Below are positions 3,925 through 28,056 of a stretch of DNA of 64,000 nt, in pieces; positions within the stretch are counted from its first letter, which is position 1, and each line of letters opens with the position of its first letter. The position numbers and the translations under genes were made by a program. Location: the sequence record NZ_CP119397.1; one strand, 5' to 3'. Source of the DNA: a plasmid. Under the pieces are notes generated by a model, which saw only the letters and a program-made list of their open reading frames with translations, did not search any database and was not told where the DNA came from.

Positions 3925-4827
3925 TTACTCCTCCCCCTGCGCCTTCAGCCGCGCCTCTAAAAATGACAGGAAAACACGGGTAACCTCGCTGCGCTGGCGG
4001 TGCTGGGAGTAGAGCGCGTTCAGGCTCAGCGGCGCGGGGTGGTGCGCGGCCAGCACCGGCACCAGGTCGCCGCTTTTCAGCGCCGGGCCGACGATAAACG
4101 CCGGCAGCAGCACCAGCCCCAGCCCGGCGATCGCCGCGTCACGCAGCACTTCGCCGTTGTTGCTGATGATCGGCCCCTGCACATCGAGCATTTTGCGCTT
4201 GCCGTCCTGCACCAGTTCCCAGCCGGTCTGCCCTTCCCGTCCGTAACGCAGGCAGGCGTGCGCCAGCAGGTCCTCCGGCGTCTGCGGCTCCCCGGCACGC
4301 CTGAGGTAGGCGGGGCTGGCGCAGACCACCCGGCTGAGCCGGCCGAGGCGGCGGGCGATCAGCGTCGAGTCCGCCAGCGCGCCGATGCGGATGGCGATGT
4401 CAAACCCCTCACCAATCAGGTCCACCTGCCTGTCCCCCAGCTCCACCTGGAACCGCACCGCCGGGTGCAGGCTCAGGAATTCCGCAATCAGCGGCGAGAG
4501 GTGGCTCATGCCAAATGACATCGGCATGCTGATGCGGAACGTGCCGTGCAGCGCCTGGCGGCGTTCGCTGACGGCCTGTTCCGCCTCGTGGATGTCATCC
4601 AGAATGCGCTGCGCATGCTGGCCGAACACCTGCCCCGCCTCGGTCACCGAAAGCTTGCGGGTGTTGCGGATCAGCAGCCGCGCGCCCAGTGAGTCCTCCA
4701 GCGCCGCCATCCGGCGGCTGACGTACTGCTTTGACAGCAACAGCTGATCCGCTGCCGCGGTAAAGCTGCCGGCGCGGATCACGGTGATAAAAATACGAAG
4801 GTCTTCTATCTGCACATTGTCCACCAT
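3925..4827 (-). CDS. LysR-family transcriptional regulator. Start at the internal ATG (MVDNVQIEDLRIF...). It is divergent from the pirin gene.
   Basis: N-terminal HTH (LRIFITVIRAGSFTAAADQLLLSKQYVSRRMAALE) plus a LysR substrate-binding domain. Confidence 0.85.
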   Translation of the reverse strand: MVDNVQIEDLRIFITVIRAGSFTAAADQLLLSKQYVSRRMAALEDSLGARLLIRNTRKLSVTEAGQVFGQHAQRILDDIHEAEQAVSERRQALHGTFRISMPMSFGMSHLSPLIAEFLSLHPAVRFQVELGDRQVDLIGEGFDIAIRIGALADSTLIARRLGRLSRVVCASPAYLRRAGEPQTPEDLLAHACLRYGREGQTGWELVQDGKRKMLDVQGPIISNNGEVLRDAAIAGLGLVLLPAFIVGPALKSGDLVPVLAAHHPAPLSLNALYSQHRQRSEVTRVFLSFLEARLKAQGEE

Positions 4828-4937
4828 ATTGTGACAGTGATTGTCATTACAGCCGATTGTTGGGCAAAACAGTTTACGTATACTTGTTCCCCATAGGAAG
4901 GGCAACCGCCTTTCACCCCATCACCAAGGAGAACACC

Positions 4938-5657
4938 ATGATCGAGCAAAGACTGTCTGAACAACGTGGCCAGGGTAATCACGGCTGGCTGAACTCATAC
5001 CACACCTTCTCGTTCGCGGGTTACTGGGATCCGAAACAGACCGGTTTCTCTGACCTGTTGGTGATTAATGATGACCGGGTTGCACCGTCACGCGGTTTCG
5101 GGGCGCACGCCCACAACAATATGGAGATCATCTCCTATGTGCTGGAAGGGGCGCTGGCGCACAAAGACTCCATGGGCACCGGCTCGGTGATTGTCCCTGG
5201 TGATGTGCAGCTGATGAGCGCCGGTGCCGGCGTCACGCACAGCGAGTTCAACCACTCCACCCGCGACGGCGTGCACTTCCTGCAAATCTGGATTGTGCCG
5301 GATGAAAAGAACACCACGCCGGGCTACCAGCAGGTGTCAGTACCGGACAGTGAAAAACGCGGCCAGCTGCGCCTGATCGTCTCGCCGGACGGCAGCAACG
5401 GGGCGCTGCGGGTGCGGCAGGATGTGAAAATCTACGCCGGGCTGTTTGATGGCGATGAGCAGCAGACGTTTGCGCTCGGGCAGAACCGCTACGCCTACAT
5501 CCATGTGGCACGCGGCAGCGTGAACATCAACGGTATCGCGTTTACCGCCGGTGACGGTGCGCGCGTCCGGGATGAGGCCTCGCTGACCTTCAGCGGCGGC
5601 GACCAGGCGGAAGTGCTGTTGTTTGACCTGCGCCCGCTGGAAGTCAATCACCCGTAA
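4938..5657 (+). CDS. Pirin-family protein, YhhW/quercetin 2,3-dioxygenase-like bicupin.
   Basis: An AGGAGA Shine-Dalgarno sequence precedes the ATG at 4938. Conserved cupin metal-binding His/Glu motifs (HAHNNMEIISYVLEG...H.E). Confidence 0.85.
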   Translation: MIEQRLSEQRGQGNHGWLNSYHTFSFAGYWDPKQTGFSDLLVINDDRVAPSRGFGAHAHNNMEIISYVLEGALAHKDSMGTGSVIVPGDVQLMSAGAGVTHSEFNHSTRDGVHFLQIWIVPDEKNTTPGYQQVSVPDSEKRGQLRLIVSPDGSNGALRVRQDVKIYAGLFDGDEQQTFALGQNRYAYIHVARGSVNINGIAFTAGDGARVRDEASLTFSGGDQAEVLLFDLRPLEVNHP

Positions 5658-5667
5658 GTCTTGAGGC

Positions 5668-5706
5668 CTACCCGGCCACCCGCTGCAAAGCGGGTGGCTT
5701 TTTTAT
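5668..5706 (+). terminator. Rho-independent terminator downstream of the pirin gene.
   Basis: Hairpin CCACCCGCTGCAAAGCGGGTGG followed by TTTTTT. Confidence 0.7.
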
Positions 5707-5715
5707 GCCCGGCGT

Positions 5716-6626
5716 TCACAGCCGGAAACCGCCCTGCTGCAACTCCGCTTCCACCCAGCGGATAAAGGTGCTGACGTTGGCGCTGCGCTCATTGCTGTGC
5801 GGCATCACCAGATGGTGGGCATTCACCGGCAGCGTGAACGCCTCCCCAAACACCGGCACCAGCAAACCGTCACGCACATAGCCCTGGCTCAGCATGGCGC
5901 TCTCCAGAATCACCCCCAGCCCCATCACCGCTGCCTCAAAACTCATGTATGACCGGTCAAAACTCAGCCCGTAATGCGAGGCGTAACGCGGCGTATTGTG
6001 GTACTCGAACCATTTCTCCCAGTTCAGCAGGGTGCTGGTGGAGTGGATAAGCTCACAGCCCAGCAGGTCATGCGGCGTCGCGACCGGGTGGCGGCGCAGA
6101 TAGTCCGGCGAGGCGAGCACCATCACCCGGTCATTCTTGATGGTCATCACGCGGTAGGCGTCCCAGTCGGGGATGCCGTGCCGGATATCAATATCGATAT
6201 TGTCGCGCGAAAATTGCAGGTTTTCATAAGAGCAGGAGAGATTAATCGTGATCTCCGGGTGCTGTTCCCGGAATGCGCCTAACCGCTTCATCAGCCAGAT
6301 TAAACCGAATGAAGGCGAGGAGTGAACCCGCAAGGTTTGCTGGGCACTGTCATTAATCAGCTGGTCGGTGGCCCGGCCAATAATACTCATTGCCCCGGAG
6401 ACCTCTTTTAAATATTTCTCTGCCGTTTTGGTCAGCGCAACCCCTTTTCCGTTACGGATAAAAAGTTTTTTCCCAATGAATTTTTCCAGGGCGGCAATCT
6501 GATGGCTGACGGCCGACGGCGTAATATTCAGCTGCTCCGCCGCGGTATGGATACTGAGCGTATTGGCGACTTCCAGGAATGACTGGATATTCCTGAGCGA
6601 GGGAAGCGGCAGGTTTTTTTGTCATG
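5716..6626 (-). pseudogene. GcvA-like LysR-family regulator with a +1 frameshift in a homopolymer (A7 on the coding strand, = T7 at 6614-6620 on +). The N-terminal HTH continues upstream of the annotated 224-aa ORF.
   Basis: The same frame as ORF 5716..6390 continues upstream as ...NLPLPSLRNIQSFLEVANTLSIHTAAEQLNITPSAVSHQIAALEKFIGKKLFIRNGKGVALT (a GcvA-type N-terminus) but ends in a TGA. The ATG at ~6624-6626 (ATGACAAAAAAA...) joins this frame only if the A-run is one base shorter. Confidence 0.6.
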
Positions 6627-26157: not shown

Positions 26158-26457
26158 TCAGAGGCGGTAAATACGGCCTGTGCCGGTCGGCATTTCAACA
26201 CTGAGGCTCAGGGTTCCGCCTAACGCCTCAATATATCGTTTCAGGCTGGCGAGTTTAATCTCTTCCCCGCGCGCTTCAATAGCCGCTATCGCAGGCTGGC
26301 TAATCCCCATCTTTTTCGCCAACTCTGTTTGGGACATCTCCAACTCTTCGCGTAGCTGGCGAAGCCGGATCTCAAGGATTTTCGCATCAGCTTTCTGCTG
26401 GATGCGCGCCTGTGATTCCGGGGAGCGCTTAGCGATTAATTCATTGAGTTTACTCAT
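26158..26457 (-). CDS. HTH XRE-family antitoxin (HigA-like), second gene of a two-gene TA-like operon.
   Basis: 99 aa with a helix-turn-helix (MSQTELAKKMGISQPAIAAIE). It overlaps the upstream gene by 4 nt. Confidence 0.7.
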   Translation of the reverse strand: MSKLNELIAKRSPESQARIQQKADAKILEIRLRQLREELEMSQTELAKKMGISQPAIAAIEARGEEIKLASLKRYIEALGGTLSLSVEMPTGTGRIYRL

Positions 26458-26846
26458 TTTACTGACTCCGGATAGTGTCTTTTTACGTCGGCGATTTTCA
26501 TTGCCTCAAGATGTTTTCTATACTCTTCTTCCGCGGTTTTTATCATATCTGCGTAAAATCGTTTTTCTTTAAGGCCAGTTTTGTCACCCGCGCATAACAC
26601 AATAGCCTGTCTTTTTGGGTCAAATACAAAGAACGCTCTGACAGGCCGACCGTTACTTTGCACCCTCAGCTCTTTCATGTTGGAAATTGTTGACCCCCTG
26701 ATGTGGTCAACCTCCGGCCTGCCCAGCATCGGTCCAAAATGCTCAAGCACCTTTAAGCCTGCCAACACATCTTCGATCATGTCAGTATCTTGCTCTTCCA
26801 ACCATTCATCAAAGTGTGCTGTGGTATCAACAATCCATCTTCCCAT
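26454..26846 (-). CDS. Putative type II toxin of the RelE/ParE superfamily (Gp49/DUF891-like 'addiction module killer'), encoded upstream of its XRE antitoxin.
   Basis: 130 aa. The toxin-first gene order with a 4-nt overlap is typical of higBA-type modules. The family call is by pattern only. Confidence 0.55.
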   Translation of the reverse strand: MGRWIVDTTAHFDEWLEEQDTDMIEDVLAGLKVLEHFGPMLGRPEVDHIRGSTISNMKELRVQSNGRPVRAFFVFDPKRQAIVLCAGDKTGLKEKRFYADMIKTAEEEYRKHLEAMKIADVKRHYPESVK

Positions 26847-27186
26847 CTTACCCGCCTGCTCCTATAAACCATAGTTTATATTATATAACCTGTAGTTTAT
26901 ATACCGATGTATGTGACCTCGCCCTGATCAAGGTCAGGTTTTAGGTATAGGGTGTGATCAAAAAGAGGAGGGTTTACAAAAGTGCACTTGTGAAGATAGG
27001 CTGGATGTAGCCGCACACAGCGCTTTTTTATTTTTGATTGGCGGAAAAATAAAAACCCCCGCGGCCAAAAGCACACGAGGGTTTTTATTTATGGGCGTAT
27101 TTCCCACAGCAAAATCTGCGCCCGGATCATTACACCTGAACAGGCTTTGCTGTGGGCCAATAAATAATAATGGAGAGAATAAAATT

Positions 27187-27264
27187 TGGAACGCCATCGA
27201 GGGATCGAACCCCGGACTGCCAACTTCTTGCTGAAATTGCCGCTCTTCCAACTGAGCTAATGAC
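27187..27264 (-). tRNA. tRNA-like gene with an atypical anticodon arm. It may be a tRNA pseudogene or island-junction remnant. The anticodon is ambiguous (GCA if a 7-nt loop is assumed).
   Basis: The minus-strand sequence ACGTCAT-TA-GCTC-AGTTGGAA-GAGC-...-CGGGG-TTCGATC-CCTCG-ATGGCGT-T-CCA shows a canonical acceptor stem (7 bp), D-arm, T-arm (GTTCGATCC) and an encoded CCA. The anticodon region (GGCAATTTCAGCAAGAAGTTGGCAGTC) is 4 nt too long, forms a 6-bp stem and lacks U33. Confidence 0.5.
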
Positions 27265-27392
27265 GTATTTTCTTTACCCCGGCCGCTGTTAATTAAATAA
27301 CGGGCCGGGGTCATCAACACCAGGCGGGAAAACGTATCTGCTCCGGGAAACCCATCATCGCTGTTGCACGTTACCCTGCCCGGTGTTTTAGC

Positions 27393-27605
27393 TTACAGCG
27401 CGACGACGTTCGCGGCTGATGGGCCTTTCATCCCTTGTTCGATGCTGAATTCAACCTGCTGGTTTTCTTCCAGGGTTTTGAAATCATTGCTCTGGATGGC
27501 AGAGAAGTGCACGAACACGTCTTTGCTGCCGTCAGCCGGAGAAATAAAACCAAAACCTTTACCCGCGTCGAACCATTTTACTGAACCTGTCATTTTAGTA
27601 GACAT
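27393..27605 (-). CDS. cspG: Cold-shock protein, CspA family (CspG/CspB-like).
   Basis: 70 aa, [38 protein letters not shown]..., with the RNP1 and RNP2 motifs. Confidence 0.9.
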
Positions 27606-27770
27606 AGAAATTTCCTTTCTGTTTTTTTAGGCCGCCATAATGGCGAAAGAGGTCTGTTTTTTTAGTGAGAAATTATGGGGCGCTAAAAGAAGAAATTTCG
27701 CTGAAGAAGGGGTATCTGAAGATATCGCTAAGACGGAGAATCGCTTGACTCAAATTGCTTTCAAAAATCT
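27606..27770 (-). promoter_or_regulatory. Long 5' UTR and promoter region of the cold-shock gene (cold-box-type leader expected).
   Basis: ~165-nt AT-rich untranslated leader upstream of the csp ATG, as in the cspA/B/G genes. Confidence 0.4.
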
Positions 27771-28056
27771 GTACTACAAACCGAGAACGCTATTTACACA
27801 TAATTAACAGGCATTAGCAAGCGCTATTTATTAAAGACTTTTTATACTGCCTGAAAATAACTGCGCGGCGCGTTATCCCTGCCCCCGCTTTTGCCCATGG
27901 CGGCAAAAGGTGCCATCGCCTTTTTTTCTGCCCGGCAAATTTGTTAAACGCCAGTGTTAAAGGCGGGATGCCTGAGGTTAATGTTAAAAGTATGTTGTAA
28001 CTATGGAGCAACACGTAAACGGGGATATTGCCCCGGCAACACCGGGGCACCGTCCC

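Follow-up and report, generated by a model that had tools for sequence, protein, structure and literature searches.

The DNA examined here is a 64,000-nucleotide stretch of a plasmid (sequence record NZ_CP119397.1), hereafter the window, which carries a small tRNA-shaped element behind a cold-shock gene. Reading along the minus strand, a CitMHS transporter gene is followed by a gene for a BON-LysM protein, a cspA-family cold-shock gene (csp), a first hairpin (hairpin 1), 10 nt of spacer, the tRNA-like element, an AU-rich trailer, a second hairpin (hairpin 2), a terminator, a Gp49/HigB-like gene paired with a helix-turn-helix (HTH) gene, and finally norR, norV and norW. The element is annotated by standard tools as a tRNA, and the evidence assembled below makes it highly probable that it is instead a conserved, selected RNA that does not decode.

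The coordinates of the csp unit are collected in Table 1. The window belongs to Chimaeribacter arupi. Its Csp protein is 100% identical to a cold-shock protein of C. arupi that one source labels as plasmid-borne, and C. arupi is described as having conserved megaplasmids of 353 and 251 kb (PMC10587679). The Rfam cspA thermoregulator (RF01766) was matched with 179 bits at 27348-27785. The terminator contained in that model (model positions 398-428) is unmatched in Serratia marcescens, and the 3' end of the model aligns poorly in the window.

Table 1. Components of the putative csp and tRNA-like transcription unit in the window
Feature	Position	Strand	Description
cspA-family cold-shock gene, 70 aa	27393..27605	(-)	Directly upstream of the element; Pfam CSD
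csp 3' untranslated region (3'UTR) motif ACAGCGAUGAUGGGUUUCCCGGAGCAG	27338..27364	(-)	Largely invariant (GCGATGA.GG...CCGGAGCAG) in Chimaeribacter and four Serratia lineages (alignment)
Hairpin 1 (CCCCGGCC...GGCCGGGG)	27277..27310	(-)	GC hairpin without U-tract; not called by terminator scan
tRNA-like RNA, 80 nt	27187..27266	(-)	ARAGORN, Rfam tRNA, minimum-free-energy cloverleaf, orthologues, pair counts, family model
Acceptor stem of tRNA-like RNA	27260-27266 pairing with 27191-27197	(-)	
D arm of tRNA-like RNA	27242-27257	(-)	
Degenerate anticodon arm (hairpin)	27221..27239	(-)	7-bp stem CAAUUUC/GAAGUUG, loop AGCAA; conserved G.G mismatch flanks the stem
T arm of tRNA-like RNA	27198-27214	(-)	
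Discriminator U	27190	(-)	
CCA	27187-27189	(-)	
AU-rich trailer	27157..27186	(-)	Directly 3' of CCA; of the kind at which RNase E enters the tRNA trailers of enterobacteria; putative RNase E role
Hairpin 2 (CCCACAGCAAAG...UUUUGCUGUGGG)	27103..27156	(-)	Kept in all Chimaeribacter and Serratia csp 3' regions, those lacking the element included
Intrinsic terminator, strong	27045..27088	(-)	GC stem between A-tract and U-tract; closes the csp / tRNA-like / hairpin-2 unit

Cloverleaf fold and atypical anticodon arm

The minus-strand sequence of the element is ACGUCAUUAGCUCAGUUGGAAGAGCGGCAAUUUCAGCAAGAAGUUGGCAGUCCGGGGUUCGAUCCCUCGAUGGCGUUCCA, and its minimum-free-energy fold is a cloverleaf. The acceptor stem comprises 7 bp (ACGUCAU/AUGGCGU) with an A1-U72 closing pair and a single wobble, U4.G69; the D arm consists of the stem GCUC/GAGC and the D loop AGUUGGAA, and the T arm of the stem CGGGG/CCUCG and the loop UUCGAUC. 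The 3' end is formed by discriminator U73 followed by a CCA that is encoded in the genome. Further traits are those of canonical bacterial tRNAs, namely G18G19 in the D arm, UUCGA in the T loop and a 5-nt variable region with G46/C48. The initial annotation had described an 80-nt minus-strand cloverleaf with acceptor, D and T arms and an encoded CCA, all of which are present in the sequence, while its 5' coordinate of 27264 falls 2 nt short of the end at 27266 given by ARAGORN.

ARAGORN, one of the two programs that the initial annotation had proposed, returned a single tRNA in the 64-kb window, at 27187-27266 (-), as an 80-nt tRNA-Cys(gca). When a 600-nt stretch was scanned, the element also matched the Rfam tRNA family (RF00005) with 37.9 bits (E=2e-6; gathering score, 29), in an alignment that mismatches the first anticodon-stem pair and places 11 nt between the two strands of the 5-pair anticodon stem. 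No other Rfam family matched the element, either in the window or in S. marcescens. The 23-nt 3' part of the element occurs once in the window and in 0 of 100 shuffles; because of this and because the element is conserved in other genomes, it is not a chance match. As a technical observation, the tRNA match that the 600-nt scan recovers was overlooked when all 64 kb were scanned at the Rfam gathering threshold under default filters, so the filter sensitivity of Rfam scans matters for atypical tRNAs.

The departure from a canonical tRNA is located between the D and T arms, where 27 nt replace the 23 of a class-I tRNA, an excess of 4 nt that had been noted at the outset and is confirmed. The 6-bp reading of the anticodon stem, with the loop CAGCAAG and A at position 33, likewise holds for C. 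arupi, and one further C-G pair, formed in the minimum-free-energy fold, closes the arm to a 7-bp stem with the 5-nt loop AGCAA.

Orthologues and patterns of conservation

Ten Chimaeribacter loci, on contigs with an identical Csp, carry the element without exception (10/10), 127 nt past the csp stop codon, and the only difference among the copies is a G-to-A change in the D stem of one variant. In other Chimaeribacter and in S. marcescens it lies ~115-127 nt behind an orthologous cspA-family gene. Further orthologues were found in C. californicus, in one JGI metagenome contig and in one SRA assembly. Six genomes of the S. marcescens complex carry the element on the chromosome, in the order pentapeptide protein, csp, element and isochorismatase, and the S. 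marcescens copy scores 35.8 bits with the Rfam tRNA model (cut-off, 29). The csp and tRNA-like unit was thus seen on differing replicon types, with the C. arupi locus labelled plasmid-borne and the S. marcescens locus on a 5.24-Mb chromosomal contig (L141). The orthologue set comprises 7 distinct sequences from two genera (alignment A2), all folding into a cloverleaf, and the element is old enough to be common to both genera.

Outside these lineages, ARAGORN and the family model found no copy in the csp 3' regions of liquefaciens-group Serratia and of S. fonticola, and csp loci sampled from Yersinia, from an AT-rich symbiont and from several SRA and metagenome assemblies had none by ARAGORN or the family model. 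The liquefaciens group retains ATTAGCT...TTTCAATAA at the corresponding place, which is suggestive of two element ends left by an internal deletion. BLAST of the element with its flanks, in near and distant modes, gave 0 matches in E. coli complete genomes, PLSDB plasmids and INPHARED phages; a larger plasmid search returned scattered gene-level matches only, and a pattern scan of viral contigs gave 0 matches. When genome contigs were scanned with a loose D-arm/T-arm pattern, C. californicus was the sole true orthologue among the matches listed, the remaining ones being for the most part unrelated tRNAs whose variable or anticodon region is a little longer than usual. The metagenome scan yielded one orthologue and one unrelated pseudo-tRNA beside a tRNA-Lys. 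A full-text literature search found no description of a csp-linked tRNA-like element, nor of one from Serratia or Chimaeribacter.

Conservation was quantified between C. arupi and S. marcescens, taking positions 1-27 and the last 34 nt as the tRNA body. Identity reached 54/61 (89%) in the body, against 39% in the csp-to-element spacer and 38% in the next 150 nt downstream; the csp coding sequence was 83% identical and its third codon positions 43/71 (61%). The chance of at least 54/61 identities at the csp third-position rate is 2e-6, and a neutral pseudogene rate accordingly fails to account for a body that surpasses both its flanks and synonymous positions. Bases engaged in tertiary interactions (U8, A14, G15/C48, G18G19, A21, G46, U54-U55-C56, A58 and G53-C61) are invariant in 7/7 sequences, as are U73, CCA and the U preceding the element, U(-1). 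The element thus keeps all that is required for the L-shaped tRNA fold and for handling by tRNA maturation enzymes. Over the whole structure, 95.7% of alignment cells are paired, compared with 35-52% when the partners are slid, and a covariance model built from the 7 sequences (R1) scores the window element at 105 bits and its orthologues at 96 or more, whereas ordinary tRNAs reach at most 61. On these comparisons, the tRNA body is under purifying selection.

The anticodon arm behaves differently. Its 18-20-nt hairpin is only 42-65% identical among orthologues, and the loops read AGCAA, AUUCCG, the 10-nt CUAUUUCACA and the 8-nt AAAUUAUC (8 nt being the length in S. marcescens). Loop length therefore ranges from 5 to 10 nt, and neither U33, nor an anticodon, nor purine-37 is conserved among the 7 sequences. 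What persists is a G.G mismatch followed by 5-7 pairs, of which the proximal five are kept in the orthologues. The stem is 92% paired, with 2 pairs altered on both sides; pair 5 occurs as U-A, U.G, C-G and G-C, and pair 7 as C-G, U-A and A-U. The isotype called by ARAGORN varies by orthologue, from Cys(gca) through ???(tc) and Val(cac) to ???(atta), and the GCA anticodon is absent from all orthologues outside the C. arupi group. The reading of GCA (Cys), already treated as ambiguous in the initial annotation, is thus unreliable, since calls shift between Cys, Val and anticodons of 2 or 4 nt that define no isotype. On this evidence, the arm is under constraint as a hairpin alone; its loop is free to drift, and no anticodon is maintained.

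The pattern scans also yielded observations on other tRNAs. Many of the matches listed are tRNAs unrelated to the element in which the D and T arms lie 2-6 nt further apart than usual; these long tRNAs include Streptomyces tRNA-Ile(TAT), some plasmid-borne (L011, L020, L034, L038, L042 and others), and 79-nt tRNA-Met(CAT) genes in Cloacimonadota (L019). On a JGI metagenome contig, a degenerate tRNA-Lys copy lies directly upstream of a normal tRNA-Lys(UUU) (L132, 549-625 and 637-712; L131, 2276-2343). Its anticodon stem comprises 6 bp (CCCCGA/UCGGGG), the 3' strand of its acceptor is broken, and it constitutes an independent case of a tRNA duplicate losing its anticodon loop.

Proposed transcription unit and processing, and rival explanations

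The promoter scan found no sigma-70-like promoter between csp and the element, and hairpin 1, behind csp, lacks a U-tract. Because there is neither a promoter of its own nor a proximal csp terminator, read-through followed by excision is the simplest model. Transcription from the csp promoter would then extend through the element, and RNase P would cut at its 5' end, leaving a csp mRNA that ends just behind hairpin 1, which would serve as the 3'-protective stem. The distance from the end of hairpin 1 to the +1 base of the element is 10 nt, and both this spacer and U(-1) are kept in the two genera. On the other side, RNase E and 3' exonucleases acting at the AU-rich trailer would trim the RNA to the CCA; RNase E processing of such trailers is established in E. 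coli tRNA maturation. The products would be a stable tRNA-shaped RNA of ~77-80 nt and a freed hairpin-2/terminator RNA.

The conserved features of the element are those read by enzymes that recognize the acceptor/T-arm minihelix and the elbow. RNase P would read the 7-bp acceptor stem, U(-1) and NCCA, and TrmA, TruB and the CCA-repair enzyme would recognize the minihelix or elbow as well. For RNase P, a 7-bp acceptor stem is one of the major determinants, and in bacterial non-coding RNAs the enzymes that process tRNA-like modules are RNase P, TruB, DusA and the CCA-adding enzyme (PMC4201824). We consider the chances evenly balanced that the element is, in full, a tRNA-derived, non-decoding RNA under selection with a processing role in cis. 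Taken by itself, the assignment of that role, as a processing module for the csp transcript, is tentative and falls somewhat short of even. A broader form of the proposal is possible though doubtful: that a cold-shock mRNA of Yersiniaceae acquires its 3' end through RNase P at an embedded tRNA-like module rather than at a terminator, with the stable tRNA-shaped RNA and a hairpin-2/terminator small RNA (sRNA) perhaps acting in cold adaptation.

Several points weigh against a selected element that processes the csp transcript. The element is dispensable, because the liquefaciens group and S. fonticola keep the csp 3' region without it, and hairpin 1 works in its absence. Covariation amounts to 2 pairs, and a shuffle control for the number of such pairs is not significant (246/500 shuffles reach the count); with no more than 7 distinct sequences, from two genera, it is limited. 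A1.G72 is mismatched in two Chimaeribacter relatives, and a D-stem pair is broken in one strain. Co-transcription, cleavage by RNase P and stability of the RNA are all steps that we infer, and the genome-wide scan speaks for the matches it listed, so that the distribution may be wider and may include copies not linked to csp.

The main rival, which is compatible with processing in cis and does not exclude it, is rather unlikely but the strongest of the alternatives: the excised RNA would be a tRNA mimic that binds or titrates in trans a protein recognizing the top half or elbow of tRNA, with the linkage to csp merely providing cold-induced expression. The partner might be a modification enzyme, a nuclease or toxin, an aminoacyl-tRNA-dependent transferase or, following non-cognate charging, EF-Tu. 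The pattern of selection, with a conserved body and a free anticodon loop, would be the same, and the encoded CCA and U73 are invariant. One precedent is the 'tRNA-Other' of Bacillus cereus. Another is the tRNA-like domain of bacterial YrlA (PMC4201824). However, no conserved partner gene adjoins the element, the neighbours differing between Chimaeribacter and Serratia; no known set of identity elements that acts independently of the anticodon is recognizable (no G3.U70, G-1 or long variable arm) in the acceptor stem; and several Serratia species have lost the element.

More improbable is the proposal of the initial annotation that the element is a tRNA pseudogene in decay, or a chimeric junction that an integrated element left behind at its attachment site. 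That reading was right to see an abnormal tRNA with a defective anticodon arm, and it gains from the non-canonical arm, from gene content that varies among Chimaeribacter strains after the terminator and from the probable deletion remnant of the liquefaciens group, which shows that the element can be lost. In contrast, the same architecture is kept in two genera with a body far more conserved than its flanks and synonymous sites, the tertiary-interaction bases are invariant and the stem changes are compensatory. A recent chimera is also hard to reconcile with conservation across genera. Should a genuine tRNA have the identical body, gene conversion from it may offer another explanation for the conservation of the body.

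Traces of integration were sought around the element. The open reading frames (ORFs) at 22-33 kb encode norWVR, the Gp49/HTH pair, csp, the BON-LysM protein, CitMHS, SDR and LysR, and none is an integrase. No second copy of the tRNA 3' segment occurs in the 64 kb, with up to 3 mismatches allowed, and there is no relevant direct repeat. In a comparison confined to 32 distinct E. coli K-12 tRNAs from 13 regions, the best match to the body was 45/59 (Val-GAC), neither half was near-identical or above generic similarity, and the acceptor sequence was unlike that of any of the 32. An origin from tRNA-Gly, hinted at by U73, C2-G71 and G3-C70, was also considered and receives no support from overall identity. 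The strain-variable region starts past the terminator of the unit and not at the tRNA 3' end. The absence of an integrase, of a 3'-end repeat and of a matching half in the sampled E. coli tRNAs, together with variation that begins beyond the terminator, leaves the attachment-junction idea unsupported.

Past the terminator, Chimaeribacter loci are of two types, with either the Gp49/HigB-like and HTH antitoxin pair (window 26158-26846 (-)) or a 173-aa ORF and a LysR gene (L002, L005 and L006, at 4575-6127); the interval between the terminator of the csp unit and norR is an indel hotspot unrelated to the tRNA-like element. The toxin-antitoxin pair, whose proximity had been read as support for a junction, is incidental, because it is replaced in some Chimaeribacter loci and absent from the Serratia locus. 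The linkage to csp, cited to the same end, is real and conserved but reflects a shared transcription-unit context rather than a junction. A tandem 19-nt repeat (TATAAACCATAGTTTATAT / TATAACCTGTAGTTTATAT; window 26863-26902) closely precedes the Gp49/HTH operon and is probably the antitoxin operator.

Very improbable is a role confined to attB, in which the element would be kept as an integration target or recombination hotspot without an RNA function. tRNA genes are classical integration sites, and downstream gene content does vary in Chimaeribacter, but an empty attB is not normally maintained by selection, no integrase or att repeat accompanies the element, the variation starts past the terminator, and compensatory stem changes indicate constraint at the RNA level. 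Least credible is a functional decoding tRNA, be it a tRNA-Cys(GCA) that has A33 and a 6-bp stem, or one that uses an 8-10-nt loop for frameshift or quadruplet decoding: despite the Cys(gca) call in C. arupi, the 8-nt loop of S. marcescens and a U73 that is the discriminator of enterobacterial tRNA-Cys and tRNA-Gly (E. coli cysT and glyW sequences), the unusual functional tRNA allowed for in the initial annotation is unlikely because the anticodon loop is not conserved, with GCA missing from every orthologue outside the C. arupi group, neither U33 nor purine-37 kept, lengths of 5-10 nt and, in C. arupi, a loop that can close to 5 nt.

Further conserved features of the csp 3' region were observed beside the element. 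A region of ~340 nt is common to Chimaeribacter and Serratia even where the element is lacking, and contains the motif GCGAUGAUGG...CCGGAGCAG, hairpin 1, hairpin 2 (ACAGCAAAG...CUUUGCUGU) and the terminator (also at L138 3230-3610, L143 2730-3050 and L145 2740-3070). No Rfam family matched this region of motif, hairpins and terminator. Its AU-rich stretch, hairpin 2 and U-tailed terminator resemble a candidate 3'UTR-derived sRNA. Serratia has an additional conserved segment of ~100 nt past hairpin 2 (L138 3480-3610, L143 2930-3050 and L174 2430-2550), with a 7-codon ORF (MDAYAIT / MNAYAAS) behind GGAG. A coding function of MDAYAIT was rejected, as the ATG is lost in the Serratia locus L174, and for the same reason the segment is more likely an RNA structure than a peptide gene. 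Short complementarities, spotted by eye, had raised the idea that the variable loop forms a kissing interaction with hairpin 2; given loops of 5-10 nt, it was dropped.

Relation to known systems

Compared with the canonical tRNA of RF00005, the element has the acceptor stem, D arm, T arm, variable region, discriminator and CCA, and a score above the cut-off, but not the 5-bp stem and 7-nt loop with U33 and purine-37, and its anticodon is not conserved. Because these anticodon-arm features fail, we do not class it as a tRNA despite its passing the Rfam tRNA score. Annotation pipelines call the element tRNA-Cys or a tRNA of no assigned isotype, or miss it, and it should not be counted in tRNA complements or in inferences on codon usage. 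It also differs from transfer-messenger RNA (tmRNA), in being only 80 nt long and in that the ARAGORN tmRNA search of the window reports none. The 'tRNA-Other' pseudo-tRNA of B. cereus is a retained chromosomal tRNA-like gene that is not a normal decoder; it belongs to a different phylum and context, and its anticodon arm is reported to be recognizable.

YrlA is likewise a non-decoding bacterial RNA that imitates the D arm, T arm and acceptor region of tRNA (PMC4201824). In the element, however, the two ends pair into a true acceptor stem that carries CCA, whereas YrlA contains a helix that binds Ro/Rsr and lies in rsr loci; the Pfam assignments of the neighbouring genes include no Ro/Rsr (TROVE) family, and Rfam gives only tRNA and cspA. 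Co-transcription of tRNA-shaped units with other RNAs has parallels in the E. coli tufB operon (thrU-tyrU-glyT-thrT-tufB) and in glyW-cysT-leuZ with 3'ETS-leuZ, both arrangements being annotated in E. coli K-12, in which maturation nucleases release the flanking RNAs. The tRNAs of those transcripts decode, whereas here the tRNA-shaped unit has lost decoding and sits 3' of the mRNA.

The regulation of the cold-shock family rests largely on RNA stability, and the presence/absence series in Serratia, with the element in S. marcescens and without it in the liquefaciens group and S. fonticola, constitutes a natural test of the proposed processing. The closest functional counterpart is mascRNA of MALAT1, a eukaryotic tRNA-like element for the 3'-end processing of a longer transcript. 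In both, a cloverleaf lies directly downstream of a 3'-protective structure, represented here in both genera by hairpin 1 without U-tract, 10 nt of spacer and U(-1); the anticodon arm is poorly constrained, and by analogy a cut by RNase P would be expected to give an upstream 3' end and a small RNA. The element is bacterial, however, and lies behind a protein-coding cold-shock mRNA, with its CCA encoded and not added, so that the likeness is one of functional analogy and not of homology. If the csp transcript is processed as proposed, bacteria would be able, as eukaryotes are, to put the tRNA fold to a second use, as a processing signal in cis that sets the 3' end of an mRNA.

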